Origin: Isurus oxyrinchus
Taxonomy: Eukaryota
Direction: 5' to 3'
Length of the DNA stretch: 64,000 bases
Assembly (NCBI GenBank): GCA_026770705.1
Contig: JANJGN010000001.1
Coordinates: 122,264,001-122,328,000 of the forward strand
Shown: piece by piece, positions 1-60,109 of the stretch
How positions within the stretch are numbered: position 1 is the first letter of the stretch
Layout of the letters: each line of letters opens with the position of its first letter
The notes under the pieces: model-generated
Told to the model about the DNA's origin: nothing
The model's database searches: none
The model's input: only the letters and a program-made list of their open reading frames with translations
Position numbers and translations under genes: made by a program

Positions 1-885
1 TTTCACCTCTGTAACATCACTCGATTTCACCCGTCAGCCCAGGCATACCGGGTTGAATGGCTCCTGTGTGTAACAATTCCATGATTCCTGTCCCACCCCC
101 CTCAACCAGCATATATTTCATCTCATTTCTGTTTTTCCTTAGTTCTGATAAAGAGTCTTACGGACTCAAAACGTAAACTGTATTTCTCTCCACAGATGCA
201 GTCAGACCTGCTGCATTTTTCCAGCTATTTTTGTTTGTGTTTCAGATTTCCAGCATCTGCAGTATTTTGCTTTTACCCCATGGTTCTGTCTCAGTCCATC
301 TGCTACTGAAACCTTCATCCATGCCTTCATTACCCCTAGATTCAACCAATCCAACGCATTCCTGGCTGGTGTCCCATATTCTACCCTCTGTAAACTTGAG
401 ATCATCCAAAACTCTGCTGCCCATGTCTTAACTTACAGCGAGTCGCTGTCCCCTGTGCTTGCTAACCGACATTGGCTCCTGACCAAACAACATCCTGATT
501 TTAAATTCTCGTCATTGTTTTCAAATACCTCTGTGGCCTTGCCTCTCCCTATCTCTGTAATCGCCTCCAATCCCACAGAAAGATATCTGCGCCTCTCTAA
601 TTCTGGCCTCTTGTGCATTACCAATCATACCTGCTCCACCATTGGTGGCCATGCCTTCAGTTGCCTAGGCCTCAAGCTCTGGAATTCCCTCCTTACACTT
701 CTCCGCCTCTCTACCTTGCTTTCCTCCTTTAACAAGCTTCTTAAAACCTACCTCTTTGACCAAGCTTTTGGTTATCTATCCTAATATCTGCTTATGTGTC
801 TCAGTGTCATACTTTGTTTTATAATGCTCCAATGAAGCACCTTGGGATAGTTCATTGTGTTAAAGGTGCTATATAAATATAAATC
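1..885 (+). mobile_element. Decayed L2-type LINE 3' end, interrupted at about 45-275
   Basis: Remnants of L2 RT C-terminus (HWL..., GGHAFSCLGLKLWNSL, LLKTYLFDQAF) and an L2-type tail gcaccttgggat...aaaggtgctatataaat. Confidence 0.7.
90..275 (+). mobile_element. Penelope-like terminal-repeat fragment with degenerate hammerhead-like motif (141-179)
   Basis: agtt-ctgataa-a-gagtc ttacg gactc-aaaa-cgta-aact followed by the shared tail ttcagatttccagcatctgcagtattttgctttt. Confidence 0.65.
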
Positions 886-3974: not shown

Positions 3975-4110
3975 AAAAGCAAAATACTGCAGATGCTGGA
4001 AATCTGAAACAAAAACAGAAAATGCTGGAAAAACTCAGCAGGTCTAGCAGCACCTGTGGAGTGAAAAAAAAAGTTAATGTTTCGAGTCCTTATGACTCTT
4101 CTTCAGAGCT
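3975..4110 (-). mobile_element. Short Penelope-like insert with hammerhead-like core
   Basis: Minus strand agct-CTGAAGA-a-GAGTC ataag GACTC-GAAA-ca-tt-aact. Imperfect TSD tttgtcat/tttatcat. Confidence 0.7.
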
Positions 4111-9984: not shown

Positions 9985-11520
9985 AAAGTTCCATCAGACT
10001 GGAAAGTAGCAAATATAACCCATCTATTCAGAGAGTGAGGCAGAAAACAGGAAACTATAGGCTTGACGTCAGTCGTGGAGAAGATGTTAGAATCGATCAT
10101 TGAGGAGACTTTGAGAAATCAAGGTAATCGGGAAGAGTCAGCATGGCATTCTGAAAGGGAAATCATGTCTAACCCATTTATTGGAATTCTTTGAAGGAGT
10201 AAAATGCACTGCGGATAAAGGGGAGCCTGTAGACATACTGTTCTTGGATTTCCAGAAGGCATTTGGTAAGGTGCCACATCAAAGGTCATTGCAGAACATA
10301 AAAACTTATGGTGTCGGGGTAACATTAGCATGGATAGCAGATTGGCTGGCAGAAAACAGAGTATGCATAAATGGGTCTTTTTCTGATTGGCAGGATGTGA
10401 CGAATGGGGTACTGCAGGGGTCTGTGCTGGGACCTCACCTTTTTACAATTTATACCAATGACTTAGATGAGAGGAGCGAAGGCATGGTAGCTAAATTTGC
10501 AAATGACACAAGATGAGTAGGAAAGTATGTTGTGATGATGTCATAAGGAAATTGCAGGACAGATATAGATAGGTTGAGAGAGTGGGCAAAAAACTGGCAG
10601 ATGGAGTATAATGAGGGAAAATGCAAAGTTGTTCACTTTGGCAGGAAGAATAAAAAAGCAAAGTATGACTGAAACAGAGAACAGCTGCAGAATTCTGAGG
10701 TGCAGAGACATCTAGATGTTCTAGTGCATGAATCACAAAGTTACTATGCAGGTACACCCGGTAATCAAAAAGGCTAATGTGATGCTATCCTTTATTCTGA
10801 GAGGAATTATACATAAAATAAGGATAAACAAAAACAGAATTACCTGGAAAAACTCAGCAGGTCTGGCAGCATCGGCGGAGAAGAAAAGAGTTGACGTTTC
10901 GAGTCCTCATGACCCTTAAGATGTTATGCTTCAATTATACAGGGCATTGGTGAGACCGCCATCTTGAAAATTGTGCCCGGTTTGGGTCTCCTTTTTCAAG
11001 GAAGGATGTAAAAGCATTGGAGACAGTTCAGAGGAAGTTTACTAGATTGATACCTTAAATGAGCGGATTGTCTTACATGGAATGGTTACACAGACTGGGC
11101 TCGTTTCCACTGGAGTTTAGAAGAGTGAGGGGTGACTTGCTTTAAGTATATAAGATCCTGAACGGTATCGACAAGGTGGACGTGATGTGGAAAGGATGTT
11201 TCCTCTCGTGGGGGAGTCCAGAACAAGGTGCACTGTATAAAAATTAGGGGTTGCCCTTATAGAACAGAGATGAGAATTTTTTTCTTTGAGAGTTATGGGA
11301 TTTTGGATCTCTCTGCCTCAGATGGCAGGGTCATTGAATATTTCTAAGGTGGGGATAGATAGATTCTTGTTAGACAAGGGAATCAAAGGTTATTAGGAGG
11401 TAGATAAGGATGTGGAATTCAAAACTAACAGATCAATCATGATCTCTTTGAATAGTGGAGCAGGCTCGAGGGGCTGAATGGCTTATTTCTGCTCCAATTT
11501 CATATGTTTGTATGTCTGTA
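9985..11520 (+). mobile_element. CR1 LINE 3' portion (decayed RT), interrupted by a Penelope-type insert
   Basis: LDFQKAFGKVPH, QGSVLGPHLF, KFANDT remnants; CR1-type 3' tail. Confidence 0.9.
10826..10917 (-). mobile_element. Young short Penelope-like insert, identical over about 90 bp to the 59689-59800 insert
   Basis: Direct sequence comparison. Interrupts the CR1 RT. Flanked by taaggat/taagat. Confidence 0.8.
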
Positions 11521-33100: not shown

Positions 33101-33538
33101 GGGAACAAACTATTTATCCACTGTATTTATATTCTTCTGCGTTGGATAAGGCAGCCACCATTTTCCAGGAACTAATTTTAAAAAGTTACTTCACTACTTA
33201 AGCAGAACTCCTGTTTTTATTCCCTCCTCAGTGAAAATGTGCACCCTCTCCTTAATTTTACAATCTGTTACCCTTTTGCAATAGAGTAACCTTTGACTTG
33301 CTGTGATCAATTCAACAAGAGAACAACTGCTTTTTTAAACAATGATTGTGCAATCTTGATTCATTGAGTATTAAAAGGTAGCCTAGTTAACATGATCAAT
33401 GGAATAATTATTAACAATAACTGGTTGAAATATTCTTTCATTATAACCTCTCTATAATAAATGAAGTAGCAAAAATCAGTTTATTGCAAGTGTTGGTAAA
33501 CTATTTTCTGCAATGTACAGAGGAACAGTGGTACTCAC

Positions 33539-36500
33539 TTCTTGTAGCGACGCTGCTCTAACACCAGTTCCCTCACTGAATCCAGAAAAGCTCCTGTTTG
33601 TTGTACGATTCTGGAATGCTTCCAATTTATCACATGGTACCTTCAACTTGAAATCTATTTCACAACTATTCACACTGGTGCATCCCATTGATGCCTGTAA
33701 ATTACATTCTGGGCACTGCTGTTCTGTCTGTAGAAGACCGCCAGATCCTTCATGAGAATCCAGTGAAGTCTGAGCACTCTTTTCCATTCCAGCTTTTTTT
33801 AATCGAGGCAGGAATTTTCCTGATTCCAGCTCCGACTTTCCATAATAATGTCCTTCTCGCTCAGCATCTTCTTCCAATGGCTTTAGGTCTGCCTGTTGAT
33901 CCTCAAACAAATCTGTCTGGCAGAGTACAGGTATAGTAACATCTTCCTTTTCAGACTCAAATTCTGACTCACTTCCTCCGCCTGGTGAAAGCTCAGAGGC
34001 AGATATAGGTCGGAAATGAGTCCGCGGTGAGATACGAATAGCCCTATACTGTGTTTTGTCAATACTATATATTTTAGGATGAAATGTTTCATTTTCTGAG
34101 TCTGAACACAGTATAGATTTGGGCTTAAAGCTTGGACTGAATGTTGCAAGCCTCTCAGGTTCAAATGAACATTCCACATGAAGAACTTGTGAAAAGGGAT
34201 TGTTCAGGTCAAAGGAGGAAAATGAATACTCAACACCAGGTTCTTGACTCTGATAATTACTGCAATTCCCTAATAAATCTTCATGGAAGATGAAAGAGAA
34301 CTCAGTATTTAACCTATCATCTCCTTTTCTCGTCTGGTCACATGGTGTGAATGAAGCACAAGATCTCCACAATGGTCTATGGCCAGGAGCAAAATTGCTG
34401 CCTGGAGTCATGAAGACATCGGTACCTGCTATGGTCACAACATCTGAAGCTGCACACTGCAATAAAGTACTTTTTGCAGGGTCAGGGGGAACTACTCCCC
34501 AGTCTCCACAACTATCGAATGTTTTCAGTTCTCCATAGACACCACCAAGAATGAAAGCACTTTCTTTGTCAGCACCAATATCCCAAGGTTTAGAAGGTGC
34601 AGTGTAATCACCTACATCTAGCTCCGTAAGTTCCCCAGTTGCAACAGCTTGGGCCTCCAAGTTTTCCTTCTGGCACTCCCACAAGTGATATTCAGACCTC
34701 TGCACTGCCTTTTCAAGAGGCTCTTGCAGGATGTCCTGTTTTGTTGCCATATCCAAACAACAGCAATGGCAACCATTCACCTCACCAGGAAAGAAATCCT
34801 CTTCTGATCGTTCTACATCTAGTGTTGTTACAGCATCATTTTCTGCTATGGCTGTCCAAATGTCTTTTATAACTTCTGAGCCATAACTATCCCCATGACT
34901 GGCCATCTGTTCTGCAAAAATTTCCACGGTTTCATATTCCTTATTTTCTTCTTCTTCCAATTGAATTCCACACACCGACTCCAGCTTAGATTTCTGTTTG
35001 AAAGTCATGCTTGTTATATTTCGTAAAGCTCCATCTGCTTGTGAATGAGTGTCCTCATGCAATAAATCTAAAAGGTCTTCATCGAGAAGGCTGGACGAAA
35101 TGCCAGGGACTATACAATCAATCTCATCTGCATTAAATTTAGTGGACTCCTCCATTTGAATACCAAAAGAGGTTTCATTATCTGAACGTGTTTCTTCAGA
35201 ATGTGACCATGGACTGCAGGTTCGTGTTGAAAGATTTGAGCAGTGGTCATTTTCATCAAAGGCACTATTTTTGGTCCATATAAGCAAACGAGACTGTGAT
35301 TTCCCTGGCAAATCTGCCCAGCCTCCAATATCACTATTCTGATTTCCCAGGCTAAGTCCATCAAAGCAGAATGGTGAAGTAGAGTTATCATATTGCACTT
35401 CAAACAGAGAAAAACAAGTGGAGTTTAAACCAGACCCTTCATTTGCTTCTGAAAAGTGTTCTTCTTGATTGCCAGTACTGCTACTTGCATCACACACTGT
35501 ATTATCCACAATAGGAGAAAGTGTAATGGGGGAATCCCCAGCAAAGCTTTCCCCTTCTGCTTCATCAGAGCTAGAGCACTCCCAAAATTGAGCTATATTT
35601 GCAAGATCATTTAAGAACAATCCTTCTGCATCAAGAGAAGCTTGTGAATCTGTCCATATTGCACTTTCCCTCGTCAACTGTAGTCCATCTAACACTATAC
35701 AACAGTCTGCCTCAAAATCAGTTTGCTCTATACTTTTCCGTCGAATCATGCTTAAAATTCGACTCTCTCCTTGCAATGAATTTGAGGCACGAGGATCCAA
35801 TATGGATTGATGAATATCCACTTCATAGAAGTGAGTAAATTCAGATAGATGCATATCATCTAAAATATCACTGTCCTTGGGATTAGAACAGCTTGAGGTC
35901 CCAGTGAGGTCATTAGCCTCATCTAATAATGCAGGCATTTCAACAAAGTGACCATCAACGAAAGCACCTGCTGCGAGGTATGTTTGGAAATTATTGTTAC
36001 TAATACAAAGACCCTGCATCGTCTCCGAAAGCTCTTCCAAAGTCAAAGATTCACTATCATTAGCAGCTACACTATTCCGGTATGCAGTTTCTAGTTTACT
36101 TTTTCTACTTGGAGGGAACCAGTACTCTGCTATTGGTTCAGTGTACCACAATGGTTCTTCTTTGAATTCTTGTTCTCTTCCACTTTCATTGCTAAGATCT
36201 TTTGTACCACTGTTGCCATTTGTTTTCCTTCTTGTTTCTTTCATAAACCTTTTTCCTTTTTTGCACAGCTGTTTGGTAGGTCCACTGCTGCTGCTCCCAC
36301 AGGTGCTTTTTCGATCATCTTTGTCGACAGACTTCAAAGATAGCCTAACTTGTCCATTTCGCCCCTTTTTGTTCCGAGCAGTTTCTCTCATCTTATGTCT
36401 GATTTTGACAGCTTTGGTGGGAACTTTTAACTCATACTGGTTCCCACTTGAGCTTGAACCTGCTTCACTGGAGCCAGAGGACCATGAACGAGGGCGCATC

Positions 36501-36830
36501 TTTCCTTCTGACCTGTGTCTGATCTGCTTCTTTCCTGTAGTGGGTTTCTGTTCTGGCAAGCTGTTATTATGCCTATTTTCTTTCTCTTTTTTACTTCTTC
36601 TGAACATACGACTACTGCCTGTAGTGATGGACGCCTCATTTGTTCGGTCTCTAGTACCTTCACCTTCACTGTTGCAATCTTTTGGAGAGGATGTATCAGT
36701 GCTTGTTTGTGGAGCAGCAGATGAAGAAGAACCACCAGAAAATGAACAAGCTTTGGTCTTATTCCACACGGTCATGATTTCTTGCAGACAGATCGGCTTC
36801 TCAGAAAGAGGTGGAAATGCTTCATAATAC
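33539..36830 (-). CDS. KIAA0232: KIAA0232 giant internal coding exon, 3292 nt (acidic, Ser-rich; recalled as DUF4603 family)
   Basis: Lies within ORF 33476..36847. Motifs YYEAFPPLSEKP, RPRSWSSGSSEAGSSSSGNQ, EEPLWYTEPIAEY, SRLLIWTKNSAF, QYRAIRISPRTHFRPISASELSPGGGSESEFESEK are recognisable KIAA0232. Acceptor tttttag, donor GTGAGT, phase 2/0. Confidence 0.97.
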
Positions 36831-36904
36831 CTAAAAATAAAATGCAAATGAGTTTAATGATCCAGATGGCAATATATACATTTTTAATTATTGAGAGTCA
36901 TCTT

Positions 36905-41200: not shown

Positions 41201-41519
41201 TTCCCAACACAATGGATGAGGCATTTATCAATTACTGAGGCAGGGTGACAAATTGTAATCAAAAATGCTGGAAACACCCAGCAGAACTGGCAGTTTAGGC
41301 TAACAAATTGTTTACTTTATTTCAATCTTTTTGACTGAACCGTATCTGCCTATCAGCCGAGCCTATACAAATTATAGCTTTCACCAATTTTCATCAAAAT
41401 CAACCAGCAGATTATAACATAGAAAAGTGTAAAGAAAACCATAGACTCCTTTTTTTGAGAATCAGCTGCATTTATCTTACAATATTAAACTGATACTTCA
41501 GCGTCATATTGAAACAAAA

Positions 41520-50952: not shown

Positions 50953-52702
50953 ACTGCAGTTCTGCTTTAGTGTGACATGAAAGCATATTCAAGTTATTGC
51001 AAAACATTGGACTGTGGGCAGCATACTCTATTTTTAATCTTAGTGAAAAGTTAGATTACGATCATACAAAACATTGGGAGAGGAAAGGCAAGAAAGGAGG
51101 AGGATCAGAGGTAAGGAAAAAACAGATCAGCAGAGGGAGAAGAAATGAAACAGCCAGCTATCAGAAGAAGGAAAATACATCCAGCTGTGGTTGTGAATGA
51201 GAAATACTGTAAAAGGAGAAATCAAATGGCAGAAGAGTAGCCTCACAGGGGCACATGGAGCCAGGGTTGGGGTGTGGGGTAAAACGATTATTCAATGACA
51301 AGACTCTCACGTCTAAATAATTCAAGAGTGGACAGTGAGAAAAAAGAGGGAGGAATAGGAGATGCACAAGGAGGAGGAAGGGGTGAAGCATGTTTCAATG
51401 ACTAGTGCTGGAAAAATAAACAGGTTCCCAGGGCCAAGTCAACTACTTTCTGTAATAGGGGGCAATAGGCCAGGGATGGTTTCCCTTGGATTAGAGTGCA
51501 CAAAGTTGTTTTTTCCTTCAATGAAAGAGAGGGTTTAAACAGTGGATCAGCAACAGTTTTTCTGTTCAGTGCAGGTAAAGGAGGCTGAGTGGATAAATCT
51601 TGCTCAATAGCAAAGGTCCAAAATGTTGCCTTTGGGAGAGGGCAAAAAACATTGGTGAGTGCAGACAGGGGAAGTAGGGGTGAAGCTAGAGTTCAGAGCA
51701 AAAGGCTTTTATAATCTTGGCTTGCTTAAAATAAGTCAGCAAGTACCAAAAACAGCACAGCAGCAGAATTATATAACTGAATAAACTTGAATACAAAATA
51801 TTTGATAACTTGCATTTACCTCAATGAGTAGCATGAGCCAGTTTGCTAGTGTATAGTTCAGAGAATCCTGGTTTGATTTTAGAGCATTTTAAATGAAAAT
51901 CAGTCTCTACATTCAAGTTGCTTCTAGACTTTCTCTGGATACAAACACAGGGAAAAAATTGCACTGAACACAGATATAAGCAGAGGCAAGTGGACAACAA
52001 TCTCGATGGTCCTTTGGTACAACTTAGGAACTCTTTTTGAATTGAAAGTCAGATGTGATCAAGAGTCATGACTTTAAGATTGTCTCTGAAAATAGAATCA
52101 CCTGTATTACTGATCAAATTCAACTTTAAACTCACAGCAATCTTGGTCTTTGGTCTGAAGCTCTCTGAAACCAAATTTCAAACCAAGACAAAATCCTGCA
52201 TTCATTTGCCTCACTGAGGAAAATATTCAATGTTTTCTGCAAGGCAAAGACAAAAGCTCCACAACTATATCTTGCAACTTTTAGGACTGACATTACACTG
52301 TCCACAATAACAGAAGACAATGTCCAGAATTTGCTACATCTTTCAACACATTCCTGGTCCACGGTAAAAGCTTTTGACAAAGCTCTGTACTTTTTGTGAA
52401 AGACAAAAATGTTACAGTTTGTAACTTGCAAAAGCTAGAGTTCATCGGGCCTATAAATTATGTTGGCCAAATAGTCTAGAAAAACCCTAAAACACCAGCT
52501 CAGGAAACGATGGCAGTGTTGATTTATAATTAGTCAAAAACATGCTGCATTGCTCCTCTAGTTTGAAGGGCAATGCCAAAACTTTACCAAAAGATAGCTT
52601 TCAAACTTCATTCATTAGCTGCAAAATATCCTTACAGTTCAAAGAGTTATTTAGATTTATCTCAGAGGACAGGCGTTTGGTCTGTGTGTGACATTTTAGC
52701 TT

Positions 52703-52860
52703 AAATAAAAACAGAAAATATTGGAAATATATCAGAATAGAATAAAAGGTCATTGATCTAAAACATTAACTCTGTTTCTCTCTCCACTGGTGCTACCTGA
52801 TTGCCTGAGTATTTGCAGGATTTTCTGTTTTTATTTCAGATTTCCAGTATTTTGCTTTCG
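52703..52860. mobile_element. Old Penelope-like terminal fragment with a short inverted piece
   Basis: aaaaacagaaaat... facing ...attttctgtttttatttcagatttccag. Flanking repeat acattttagct/accatttagct. Confidence 0.55.
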
Positions 52861-53789
52861 AATTGACCATTTAGCTCACTTGTTTCAAGTTATCTTCTGC
52901 AAGAATTTCAACACACTGTGGTCGACAATTTTCATCAGAATTGTAATGCAAATCCCAAGTATAGAAGATTGTATTTCCTCCTTCTCTTCTGCCAGAAACT
53001 TAACTTTTCAAAAATAACTCCATCCCTTCACAATTACCCAACACCAATCATCAAAGTTAGACCAGCTAAAGAACACAAGAGTTAGAGGACACTGAGGCCT
53101 TCGGAACACTTCAATATGAAATAACATATCAATTCAGGTAAGGATCATCTGGACTGGCAGCAAACTATAATATTAGATACCTGCAGCTGCAACACAACGC
53201 AGTCTTATTCCCACCTTCCTACATTTCTGTGGCAGACCGACAAACAAAAATATGAATTTCTTTTAAATTTTAAAGGAACTGGGCAACTTTAAAATTAAAA
53301 ATAAAGTAGTAACTGATATAGCCTCACACAGGGAAATCTCACCTTTAAATTGCTCCTGATTTTGATAAGCAGAGGTTCAGCCAAGCAGAGCTGCTGCTGG
53401 TGTAAAGGAACAGATTTATTATCCAGCAAGAGCTGCTTTGATTGGTCCAACTTCTGCTTCTAGATTAGAATACAAGCCACCCATGCTGTGCAGAGATCAC
53501 TCCATGAGACAGTATGAATTAATATCTTTAAGAATTTAAACTTAAATTTCTCCTGTTTCCTTTAGAATTCAAGAAATTCAGATTTATGTTGCATCTCTTC
53601 TAGTTATGAGCAGTTGAATAGCGAGTTCCCTTTATCAGCCAGCCTTGCATCCTCCTTATATCCTTGTTGCATCCTTCCCAATTTGGGAACACCTAATCTA
53701 AAATGACACTTCAGTGGAATACTGAGGCAGTGACGCACAGTCAGAATCCTAACTTTCAAGTGAGGCCGTGCTTTATCAGGTGGGTGCAA

Positions 53790-55345
53790 ACGTACAAGCA
53801 AGGAGCAGGAGCAAGCCACTCGGCCCTTGGAGCCTGCTCCGCCATTTAATAAGATCATTATTGATCTGACCGTAACCTCCCACCTACCCCCAATAACCCT
53901 TCACCCCCTTGTTATCAAGAATCTATCTACCTCTGCCTTGAAAACGTCAAAGACTCTACTTCCACTGTCTTTTGAGGAAGTGAGTTCCAAAGACTCTCGG
54001 CCATCAGAGAAAAAAATTCTTCTCATGTCTGCTTTAAATGGGTGGCCCCTTATTTTTAAACAGTGATCCCTAGTACTAGGTTCTCCCACAAGAGGAAATG
54101 TCCTCTCCACATCCACCGTCAAGTCCCCTGAGGATCTTATATGTTTCAATCAGGTCAACTCTTACTCTTCTAAATTCCAGCAGATACAAGCTGAGCCTGT
54201 CCAATCTTTTATCATAAGACAACCCATCCATTCTTGGTGTTAGTTTAGTAAATGTTCTCTGAACTACTTCTAATGCATCTGCATTCTTCCTTAAATAAAG
54301 AGACCAATACACTACACAACACTTCAGATATGGTCTCACAAGTGCCCCGTACAACTGATGTGCTTCAGTTTAACTTACAAGCGTAGATAAAGGTAGGGTA
54401 GTGCCTTTGGAACAGAAATATGAAAGACAGAGGTGTAGAGACATTTGCCAGCAGAAGGAAAGGATCCAGGTGTGTATCATTAGCTAGCTGAAACCATTCA
54501 GTTTCAGCTAGCTAATGGTATACACCTGGATCCTTTCCTTCTGCTGGCAAATATCTCTACACCTCTGTCTTTCATATTTCTGTTCCAAAGGCACTACCCT
54601 ATCTTTATCTACACAAAAGTCTACCTGCTTAATTTGAATCAATCCCTTTTGAATTCACCATGCTTCCTTATATTTGCCTGGCCAAACTGGGCATATGTTC
54701 TCGTTTTTTAGCTGATCAACAAATTACACTCATACAGCACCTTTAACATAATAAACAGTCCCTAAGTGCTTCAATCTCTCACCCTCCCCTCCTCTTGATC
54801 TTGTTTTCTGTCCCTCACTCCTCTCTCTTGCTCTCGAGTCCTCTGTCTTGTACTTTCTGTTTTAATGTTCAGTTTCCCTCAGAATAAATGATAACATTCA
54901 ATAAGCTTTTCTCATTACTTGCTGTACCTGCACATTAGCCTTTTCTGATTCATGCACGAGGACACCCACACCCTCTGCGTCTCAGAGCTCTGCAATCTCT
55001 CACCATTTAGATAATATGCTTTTTATTCTTCCTGTCAAAATGGACAATTTCACATTTTCCCACATTGTACTCCATTTTGCAGATCTATGCCCACTCACTT
55101 AACATATATATGCCCCCTTGTAGCCTCCTAATGTCCTCTTCATAACTTACTTTCCCACCTTGGTATCATGAACAAATTTAGCAATCATAACTTCTTACAA
55201 TTTGTATAAATGATTTGGATGAAGGCACCGAAGGTGAGGCCCCAGCATTGATCCCTGGCTCATTACATCCTGGCAACCAGACTAAGACCCATTTATGGCT
55301 ATGCTCTGTTTCCTGTTAACTGGCCAATCTTCCATCCATGCCAAT
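53790..55345 (-). mobile_element. CR1 LINE 3' portion, interrupted at about 54358-54905
   Basis: ORFs 53901-54149 and 54076-54354 are CR1 RT C-terminus. RT sequence resumes at about 54905. Confidence 0.85.
54383..54612. repeat. Near-perfect palindrome, 112-bp arms, 6-nt loop
   Basis: 54383-54494 is the reverse complement of 54501-54612 with no indels and 4 transitions by manual count. Confidence 0.97.
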
Positions 55346-55640: not shown

Positions 55641-56289
55641 ATAACCCTTTGAATGTGATTTTTCATGTTTCTGTAACAGGGATCATGAAATTGCTATTGA
55701 ATGTGGTTTTGCATCATAGTCTAGTAGATGCTTTGTAAAGAAGAGGCATTTTTATTTGTTCAAAGCTGAGGTGTGGGAAGAATAGCACCATCCTGATTTC
55801 TCTAAACCTTGCACTTCAACGAACTCTCTACACTACATATTTTCAGCTGATCTAAGCATGCAGATTTAATTATTCGCATGCTCAGATCAGCAATCAGTAA
55901 TAAAAACGCATAATGGAAGTAGGTCAATCATTTTAGTAATAAAACTAGCACATTGCCTATGGCATGGCTAACAGCAAGTTGATGGATTCATTGTTCCACA
56001 ATAATTAGGGCTGTATGTTATGTTATGCACAGTGCATTATCAGGCCAGTGATTTCGAGACATTGCTAAATTTTGTTTTTATTGCATGCTATTCAGGAATG
56101 AGTGTTTTTTGGACTCACTATACCATTGCTCATAGGAAAAAGATCAATTATTTAAGGATTAACAGGAGACGGAATGAATGAGAGGGGGGAAGCGAAGATC
56201 CAGAGATAGGAGGGGAGTGTGAGAGGAGATACAGGGGAGCACAAGTGGAAAGGGGGGTTATGATAGTACTAGGAAAAGTGTGAAAGGTA

Positions 56290-56660
56290 GGAAGTACAAG
56301 ACAGGATTCGAGAGCAAGAGAAAGGAGTGAGGGACAGAAAGCAAGACCAAGAGGAGGGGAGGGTGAGAGTGTGAAGCACTTTGGGGCTGTTTATTATGTT
56401 AAAAGTGCTGTATGAGTGTAATTTGTTGATCAGCTAAAAAACGAGGACATATGCCACATTAGTAGTTTGGCCAGACAAATGTAAGGAAGCATGGTGAATT
56501 CAAAAGGGATTGATTCAAATTAAGCAGGTAGACTTTTGTGTAGATAAAGATAGGGTAGTGCCTTTGGAACAGAAAAAATAAAAGACAGAGGTGTAGAGAT
56601 ATTTGCCAGCAGAAGGAAAGGGTCCAGGTGCGTACCATTAGCTAGCTGAAACCATCCAGT
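56290..56660. repeat. Donor segment: inverted copy at about 54501-54858, direct copy of its 3' 120 bp at 54383-54502
   Basis: Direct sequence comparison. Confidence 0.95.
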
Positions 56661-57084
56661 CAACATGAAGCCATTAACAAAGTTCATTACGTGTCAGAAT
56701 TTATTTTTCAAACATTTGATAAGTTAATCTAACTTTATTACAGAACAATTGACATGACCACAGTTGAAATACTGCTTTCAATTTTTGACATCACAACATT
56801 CAGAAAGAGGGGTTTGGAGAAAACCTACACAGCTTTTTTTCATTGGTGAAAGTAGGAAAATATTTAGAAGCAATAGAAGTGGTAACTCCAAGGTTGGGCA
56901 TTGCAGGCGCCTGTGGGTAATGCTGGCTGGAAAATTGCTGACATTCAGTGTCAAATTTTCCATTCGCTATAATTAATAGATTTAAAATCAAGTACCACAG
57001 GCCCACAATCTCCCAGCCAGCATTCCACAGGAGTGCCATTCTATGCTGGAAATGGCCAACAAACAAATGAGCCCAAAACAAAGG

Positions 57085-57262
57085 CAAAACATTACTGAGG
57101 CTGGAAAGCTGAATAAAAACAGAAAATGTTAGAAATAATCAAGCAGCGACAGAGAGAGGACTCAGTGCTGACACTAGGTCAGTGACCTAGAACATTAACT
57201 ATGTTGCTCTTTCCATTGATGCTGGCTGATTTGCTGATCATTTCCAGCATTTTCTGTTTTTT
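57085..57262. mobile_element. Old inverted pair of Penelope-like terminal fragments
   Basis: aaaaacagaaaatg... and ...cattttctgttttt facing each other. Confidence 0.5.
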
Positions 57263-57605
57263 TTAATTATAGACGAATGAGCCCTACAGACACAAGCTGG
57301 CTAATTCGTTTGAACTGTGGGCAGAGTAGTACAGGTCGGGGCACCATTAAAAATCAGATTAAATCAAAGCATGAAAAAACTGCTTTTCTTCATGTAATAG
57401 CAGATACATGTCATATTTTAATAAGTTAATATATTGTTAATGAATTGCATTTAAAAAAGAACAATGCATATTGTCTTTTATTGTGGTCATAATTAGATAA
57501 GTATGGATGGAGATGATCAAACACTGAAATATAATGGTTTTGAGCTGATACAATTATAATTCTCAATGCTATCGGAATTTATTGTAAAATAGTGGTGCCT
57601 GTGTC

Positions 57606-58436: not shown

Positions 58437-58669
58437 CAAAAGCAAAAACAGAAAATGCTGGAAAAACTCAGATCTAACAGCATCTGTGGAGAGAAAAACA
58501 AAGTTGACGTTTCGAGTCCTCATGGCTCTTCTTCAGCTCTGAAGAAGTCATACGGACTCCAATCGTTAATTGTTTTTCTCTCCATAGATCCTGCTCGATC
58601 TGCAGTTTTTCCAGCATTTTCTGTTTTTGTTTCAGATTTCCAGCATCCGCAGTATTTTGCTTTTATCTT
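58437..58669. mobile_element. Inverted pair of Penelope-like terminal repeats joined at the hammerhead-like core, TSD-flanked
   Basis: Junction ...tcttcttcag-ct-ctgaagaag.... Flanks agtcaaaaagattaa (58422-58436) and agtcaaaagattaa (58670-58683). Confidence 0.8.
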
Positions 58670-59342: not shown

Positions 59343-59688
59343 CTGTTTCATAAAATTAGAGTGGAACAATTAGCATACAGAAAAATTACCACTTCATAAT
59401 TCAAAGCGAAGCTCAACTGAATATTGGATTTGGTAAAATGCAATAAATCGATCCATTAACAAAGAGCACTAAGCATGGACAGAATAATGGGATACTGCGG
59501 TTGCATAACATCACTCATGTTATGAGGGACATTGAAGCAGACAGTAGAAATTTGTTCAGAATACAAGATGCATGTCTGAAAAAGACATCAAAATGGTTGT
59601 ACAAGATGTTAAGAAAGCACAATGATGAGTATCTGAAATTTTTGTATTTTTTATTTGAAGTGTGAAAAACAAACAATACAATTTAGAA

Positions 59689-59800
59689 TTTTCCCTAGTT
59701 CTGTGGAAGGGTCATGAGGACTCGAAACGTCAACTCTTTTCTTCTCCGCCGATGCTGCCAGACCTGCTGAGTTTTTCCAGGTAATTCTGTTTTTGTTTTG
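59689..59800 (+). mobile_element. Young 112-bp Penelope-like insert with hammerhead-like motif and perfect 14-bp TSD
   Basis: TSD aatacaatttagaa at 59675-59688 and 59801-59814. Motif agtt-ctgtgga-a-gggtc atgag gactc-gaaa-cg-tc-aact. Confidence 0.85.
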
Positions 59801-60109
59801 AATACAATTTAGAAATTGTGTTATTAGTAATATTTTTGAGCTGAAGTAAAGCACTATTTGTTACAGGTTTGCCATTGTAGCTAGTACTGGTGATGATTTC
59901 TCCTTTGGTTATTTTGCTAAATATCTGTATGCTTTCGTTATCGACCATCCTCTCAGTGGAAACAGTGTCTCCCTATATAGTCTATCACAACCCTTCACAA
60001 TATAAAAAATAACCTATTAAATCTCCCTGAACATTTTCTGCTCAAGAATAATGCAGCTTTTCCAGTCTCCATAAAACTCAAGTCATCACTTGGTAGTACA
60101 GAACATGAG

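Follow-up and report, generated by a model that had tools for sequence, protein, structure and literature searches.

The short inserts scattered through the window (the whole stretch of 64,000 nucleotides analysed here) are most probably the 5'-truncated 3' ends, or pseudo-LTR (pLTR) stubs, of an endonuclease-bearing Penelope-like retrotransposon (PLE), with the hammerhead motif as a likely passenger. The first-pass annotation had favoured retrozyme-like units whose length is tied to the ribozyme and had kept truncated PLE ends as the conservative alternative; it is this alternative that fits best. The hammerhead in the stubs was likely inherited from the terminal repeat of the parent element and is not likely to be what sets the size of the inserts. 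The family is an abundant PLE terminal repeat with an already known minimal hammerhead, and its description amounts to repeat annotation.

An nhmmer profile search of the window recovered a single repeat family of eight insertions comprising 11 arms (Table 1), the weakest of which, a short one, has an E-value of 0.32. All seven inserts previously listed as related belong to it, with mutual identities of 70-100% in pairwise comparisons within the window, and a further 46-bp copy (41257-41302) is added to them. Identity is complete over 92 bp between c3 (10826-10917) and part of c7 (59707-59798). As had been noted, the inserts contain no coding sequence. A search for tandem arrays of family units across the 64 kb found none. 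Two of the copies, c4 and c5, belong to an older subfamily whose helix II (52745-52757, 57176-57188) departs from that of the others in having a 3-nt loop and other basal pairs. The subfamily of c3 and c7 carries at 59777-59786 a CAG/GTAATT stretch, not seen in the older copies, which is splice-donor-like. The nesting in positions 1-300, as judged by eye, presumably consists of an L2-like fragment broken by an apparent CR1 3' end (~33-85), followed by c1. Separately, the window holds a palindromic insert (54383-54858, arms meeting near 54501) inside a CR1-type copy, and a second copy of it lies 2 kb off on the opposite strand (56289-56660, 92% identical); this element is head-to-head like the PLE stubs, yet it does not match their family.

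Table 1. Coordinates of the stubs, their features and the host gene within the window
Feature	Positions	Strand	Description
c1, longest copy	88..275	+	~56 nt pyrimidine-rich stretch upstream of motif, ending in acceptor-like TAG (140-142); motif core 9/11; long 3' end with tail; no clear TSD
c2, single arm with tail	3975..4110	-	starts at AG of helix I; core 11/11, but C-A mismatch in helix I and ACGU palindrome decayed
c3, short-end stub	10826..10917	-	starts inside core box (+6); sits in CR1-type LINE copy
c8, 46-bp stub	41257..41302	-	not in the earlier list; without hammerhead
TSD of c8	41248-41256/41303-41311		9 bp, exact
c4, head-to-head double arm	52702..52863	left arm -, right arm +	short left arm lacks motif; tail and decayed motif on right arm; TSD 11/13
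c5, head-to-head double arm	57075..57272	left arm -, right arm +	tail on left arm; decayed motif on right arm, which is short-ended; TSD 11/12
c6, head-to-head palindrome	58437..58669		both arms begin at motif front; right arm tailed, left arm untailed; TSD 14-15 bp, one indel
c7, single-arm stub	59689..59800	+	3' end of the short type; begins 12 nt before core box
Left TSD of c7	59675..59688	+	14 bp, exact
Right TSD of c7	59801..59814	+	14 bp, exact
Minimal type I hammerhead motif of c7	59697..59735	+	layout equals the consensus given in Fig S3 of PMC4209133
c7 helix I	59697-59700/59732-59735	+
c7 core box	59701-59707	+	U at A6; followed by extra A
c7 helix II	59709-59713/59719-59723	+	5 bp
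c7 GAAA	59724-59727	+	followed by palindromic ACGU; predicted cut after 59731
Large exon of KIAA0232-like host gene	33476..36853	-	Pfam DUF4603
Further KIAA0232 exons	~59350-59214, 38250-38147, 15120-14920	-	by eye

The anatomy of the inserts displays the hallmarks of PLEs, namely an optional 3' tail, an inverted truncated arm and varied 5' truncation with short target-site duplications (TSDs). The family has two 3' ends ~32 nt apart, the spacing being 32 nt in all three undamaged tailed arms that were measured (c1, c2 and the right arm of c6). Head-to-head double arms make up three of the eight insertions (c4, c5 and c6), each with the tail on one arm. According to PMC8557442 and PMC3846280, PLEs typically show an optional tail of 30-40 bp and an adjacent inverted copy that is truncated at its 5' end, and for a PLE of Anolis the tail has been traced to the gap between two internal start sites of reverse transcription, with both target strands nicked and extended (PMC11167929). 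Clear TSDs of 9-15 bp flank five of the eight insertions, in keeping with the earlier report of 8-15 bp TSDs for several inserts; two others have weak ones (7/8 bp and 5-6 bp, by eye) and the last has none. For comparison, exact repeats of at least 9 bp occurred by chance in 0.3% of 3000 random flank pairs. The link to PLEs and to the minimal hammerhead drawn in the first-pass annotation is thus supported by the motif layout, the tail and the inverted arms. The window contains no ORF with reverse transcriptase and GIY-YIG domains, its ORFs being only of LINE type or of the host (six checked in Pfam). With the 63-aa open frame in c1 as query, no parent protein emerged among 18 candidates, and a second protein search returned one 71-aa ORF that is itself derived from the repeat. 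Since no such ORF was tied to the repeat, PLE membership rests on anatomy. Pattern scans for the repeat gave no loci in viral, metagenome and prokaryote collections, as expected for a vertebrate repeat; among sharks, an expansion of Penelope-like elements has been reported in introns of the whale shark (bioRxiv 10.1101/443036).

The motif layout proposed for c7 (helix I, box, extra A, helix II, GAAA, ACGU and UH) was confirmed at 59697-59735. It retains 10 of the 11 core bases, the box CUGUGGA placing a U at core position A6. Changes at A6 cripple hammerhead cleavage. Activity data for an A6U hammerhead were not found in the literature searched; a natural, active A6C variant is on record (PMC7151607), and the published activity of minimal hammerheads is low, even as dimers (PMC4209133). 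A strict descriptor found no intact motif in the 64 kb, and a relaxed one matched only the copy at 59701, with 0.05 matches expected per shuffled window (60 shuffles). Rfam returned no hammerhead at the gathering threshold and none among 16 weak hits. The helix III stem of the canonical type I hammerhead is not present, only the minimal form being found. Among the 11 arms, four are without the core box, one begins ~56 nt upstream of it, and none combines the full core with intact helices; c2 and the left arm of c6 keep 11/11 core bases, with the helices broken in both.

In an alignment of seven arms, with small shifts in three rows, 62 of 76 core letters (82%) match the majority vs 383 of 441 (87%) in the downstream flank. 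Inserted copies are under no selection on the core, the flank being kept no worse. Helix II, stated earlier to vary between G-C and G-U, actually varies between A-U and G-U, and two-sided pair changes were not encountered among the five arms aligned for this count, which left out the older right arms of c4 and c5. These two older arms, compared by eye, still form all five pairs of helix II although two of the pairs are spelled differently, a pattern suggestive of selection on the parental elements and not on the inserted copies.

The 5' ends of the family, set by eye, span about -56 to +66 relative to the core box, with an upstream reach of at most ~56 nt in all eight insertions. Those of seven of the 11 arms lie within -12..+6, which bears out the proposed clustering of 5' boundaries near the motif start, and three arms begin precisely at the AG of helix I. 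Scan tests for bunching gave p 0.01-0.08 with all 11 arms and p 0.006-0.024 with the longest arms, six of eight of which fall in the interval. The bunching exceeds what simple random truncation would give. Hammerhead cleavage does not explain it, because copies arising by cleavage would lack the motif and begin at 59732; none of the five single-arm copies starts at the predicted cut site, and the sole arm beginning close by is the decayed, inverted left arm of c5. Moreover, c3 and c7 have identical sequence and 5' starts 18 nt apart (+6 vs -12). Microhomology was considered as a cause and rejected, as inverted 4- and 5-mer matches show no enrichment at -12..+6 in c1 and c2 and only a slight one in c7. 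The AG at helix I is the best acceptor-like site of nine candidates in c1 (13/14 pyrimidines), comparably good sites occurring at 0.56 per kb per strand.

Public contigs extend the picture beyond the window. Four of the 24 sequencing runs listed, two of DNA and two presumed to be of RNA, were mapped to 59590-59889 at 88% likeness, and the contigs matching this interval number 31,162 in run X1 (from 76% of the run), 41,033 in X8 (50%), 2,677 in X19 and 4,169 in X15. These numbers indicate that the repeat family is very abundant, with a rough bracket of 2e4-7e5 copies, contig depth being no copy count. Both family 3' ends recur in all four runs, as unlike flanks setting in at 59797-59799 and as the tail at 59800. 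At the motif front, 59697 is the top place of 5' loose ends, with at least 163, 104 and 13 contigs in three of the four runs, and it is also where eight of the 32 longest listed pieces begin. The loose ends there are short (median 17-28 nt) and resemble junctions into more repeat; in X1, 11 of the 14 letters in their far part agree by eye with sequence lying upstream of the motif in c1, and the pile may stem in part from alignment clipping of other subfamilies. Likewise, a depth-ramp model is fitted better by a start at 59697 than at 59689, a picture that upstream subfamily differences would equally give. The right flank in X8 is without cover and carries no weight either way. In both DNA runs the majority lines of the 59697 loose ends terminate in a near repeat of the 3' strand of helix II plus CC before the AG. 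Such sequence may represent a first exon joined by splicing or a partially duplicated stretch; searched in the window as a spliced first exon with three mismatches, the majority line had no match.

The joints in these contigs bear on whether units are bounded by the cut site. Seven listed joints go back from the 3' end region to seven different starts (59719-59764), none of them at the cut site; they look like partial tandems of truncated copies and have only single-locus depth. None of ten joints listed in the four runs connects the cut site with the unit end, contigs being able to show presence and not absence, and no circle-type joint appeared in the contigs of the two runs whose RNA status is a guess. 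Five of the 12 joints listed from a second, longer set connect 59732-59738 to 59697-59698, at a depth of 19-44 vs 14-18 in the flank, and may represent adjacent hammerhead pairs able to dimerise. Opposite-strand joints are also present.

The same contigs date the c7 insertion. Both of its junctions are found in a second organism, with two differences in 126 nt on the left and one in 112 nt on the right, and no empty-site joint is listed for it; the insertion is therefore older than the split of the two organisms. The description of the family as recently active was accordingly overstated.

For the preferred reading of truncated PLE ends, the following course can be proposed by analogy with the biochemistry of the Anolis PLE. 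The PLE protein would nick AT-rich DNA, and reverse transcription would begin in uncleaved RNA at either of two sites, yielding the short or the tailed end. Copying of the cDNA would mostly end after 35-160 nt, and extension of both target strands, or fold-back of the cDNA, would give the head-to-head inserts. Copies bearing the core box would have to derive from RNA that the ribozyme left uncut. Copying would further tend to halt at the motif front, where helix I lies directly behind a pyrimidine tract and an acceptor-like AG; an obstacle at a retained 3' splice site may be what halts it, which is a guess. Several published observations bear on this course: hammerhead mutants leave insertion of the Anolis PLE in vitro unaffected (PMC11167929), dispersed single and opposite-strand hammerhead motifs have already been attributed to truncated PLEs (PMC4209133), and the intron of the Drosophila virilis Penelope ends at the 5' end of helix I (PMC4209133; promoter and intron in PMC2377424).

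The alternative that survives best, although we regard it as unlikely, is a SINE-like unit consisting of the pLTR alone, in which the stubs would be transcribed from near 59697 and copied in trans as 105-nt or 137-nt copies. Its length would be set by the RNA start and the start of reverse transcription and not by cleavage, each transcript being a complete template. Speaking for it are the bunching of 5' ends at -12..+6 with three of 11 arms at the helix I AG, the contig loose ends and longest listed pieces beginning at 59697, and the very high abundance (eight insertions per 64 kb and 31,162 contigs in one run). Position 59697 also fits an initiator pattern; however, at 12 per kb per strand this pattern is too common to count for 59697. 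Internal promoters are described in PLE pLTRs (PMC2377424), and mobilisation in trans is described as needing only pLTR sequence (PMC3846280). Against these points, the youngest-looking pair (c7 and c3) has its starts at -12 and +6, and the template of c7 and of c1 began further 5', since both copies include sequence from upstream. The 59697 loose ends, moreover, are short and their pile may be partly clipping, and the start site in D. virilis lies 46 nt plus a 75-nt intron upstream (PMC2377424, PMC4209133). A bolder form of this alternative is similarly doubtful: the 59697 AG would be a true preferred boundary, and the stubs of ~105 and 137 nt would spread on their own as a SINE-like family numbering tens to hundreds of thousands. 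Their ends would be determined at the ribozyme front by an RNA start or by a block at the splice site, and otherwise by the two internal starts of reverse transcription; cleavage would not be required, and the rare adjacent hammerhead pairs would be nascent retrozymes.

A true non-LTR retrozyme, in which hammerhead cleavage would free a unit-length RNA that is circularised and reinserted by PLE proteins, is very improbable. The hammerhead motif is present, a few contig joints may reflect adjacent hammerhead pairs, and the known retrozymes are said to derive from PLE pLTRs, to have monomer derivatives and to occur in the sole chondrichthyan sampled (bioRxiv 10.64898/2026.07.22.740005). However, the described non-LTR retrozymes are arrayed in tandem, each unit running from one complete hammerhead to the next, and are expressed as circular RNA (PMC7229834, PMC7761336, bioRxiv 10.64898/2026.07.22.740005), whereas the window has no tandem copy, the insert ends do not coincide with the cut site, and none of the ten listed joints, from two DNA and two presumed RNA runs, joins that site to the unit end. 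The motif is of the minimal PLE type, whereas those of the described retrozymes are canonical type I (PMC7229834), and no arm combines the full core with intact helices. PLE insertion alone accounts for the tail and the inverted arms. Cleavage would start a unit at 59732 and remove the motif, and no single-arm copy starts there; a unit length set by the ribozyme, as first suggested, is therefore unsupported, the differing 5' ends of c3 and c7 and an ordinary two-site PLE 3' tail likewise speaking against it. Finally, a chance look-alike of the motif in a non-PLE repeat, such as a SINE tail or a MITE-like fold-back element, is scarcely credible: Rfam without a hammerhead, the lack of a parent ORF and the lack of two-sided pair changes in five arms would favour it, but the relaxed descriptor expects only 0.05 matches per shuffled window, the traits of the minimal hammerhead (extra base after the core box, basal G-C pair in helix II, palindromic C-G) all co-occur, c4 and c5 retain a five-pair helix II with different letters (by eye), and both the tail and the inverted arms on one side are features of PLEs.

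The KIAA0232-like host gene lies on the minus strand, and motifs of intronic copies on that strand had been suggested to enter its pre-mRNA. This holds for the left arm of c6 (58437-58540) only; c7 is situated in an intron but antisense to the gene. In the motif of the c6 left arm the 5' strand of helix I is missing and helix II contains a mismatch; the c6 hairpin in which this motif is predicted to lie has a predicted energy of -112.6 kcal/mol (z -14.8). Given these helix defects and the predicted hairpin, cleavage of the KIAA0232 pre-mRNA would be unlikely. Within the KIAA0232 intron, the c6 palindrome (58437-58632) is predicted to fold into ~95 bp of double-stranded RNA, which might serve as a substrate for editing or Dicer.

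With so many copies, mapping 5' ends and inversion points across the whole genome could probe the roles of the hammerhead and the retained intron in PLEs and the origin of the inverted arms. Should the accumulation of ends at the start of helix I prove robust, it would point to a block of reverse transcription or an RNA start there, or, at its boldest, to a SINE-like family made of the pLTR alone. In the literature, of which our coverage was limited, we found no prior description of this family or of 5' bunching at a PLE hammerhead.

Compared with known systems, the family resembles animal non-LTR retrozymes in being non-coding, hammerhead-bearing and related to PLE pLTRs (PMC7229834; bioRxiv 10.64898/2026.07.22.740005); unlike them as there described, its copies are single or head-to-head and end at the PLE tail, and the cut site is no boundary. 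The likeness to the minimal hammerheads of metazoan PLEs (PMC4209133) extends to the core box with an extra base, the 5-bp helix II with a basal G-C, the GAAA-CG-UH order, the short helix I, the U-rich flanks and the dispersed single and opposite-strand copies. The U at A6 in c7 differs from the A in the rows of Fig S3 of that paper, and its supplement gave no matches to chondrichthyan entries. In relation to the endonuclease-bearing PLEs (Penelope/Poseidon, Neptune), the present family differs in being known from arms of 35-190 nt alone, and bunching of 5' ends at the motif front is not reported in the available text of PMC8557442, PMC3846280 and PMC11167929. With these PLEs it shares the optional tail of ~32 nt and the head-to-head 5'-truncated arm (PMC8557442, PMC3846280, PMC11167929), as well as variable TSDs, heavy 5' truncation and a hammerhead ~100-135 nt from the 3' ends, and with the D. 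virilis Penelope in particular it shares an acceptor-like AG at helix I.
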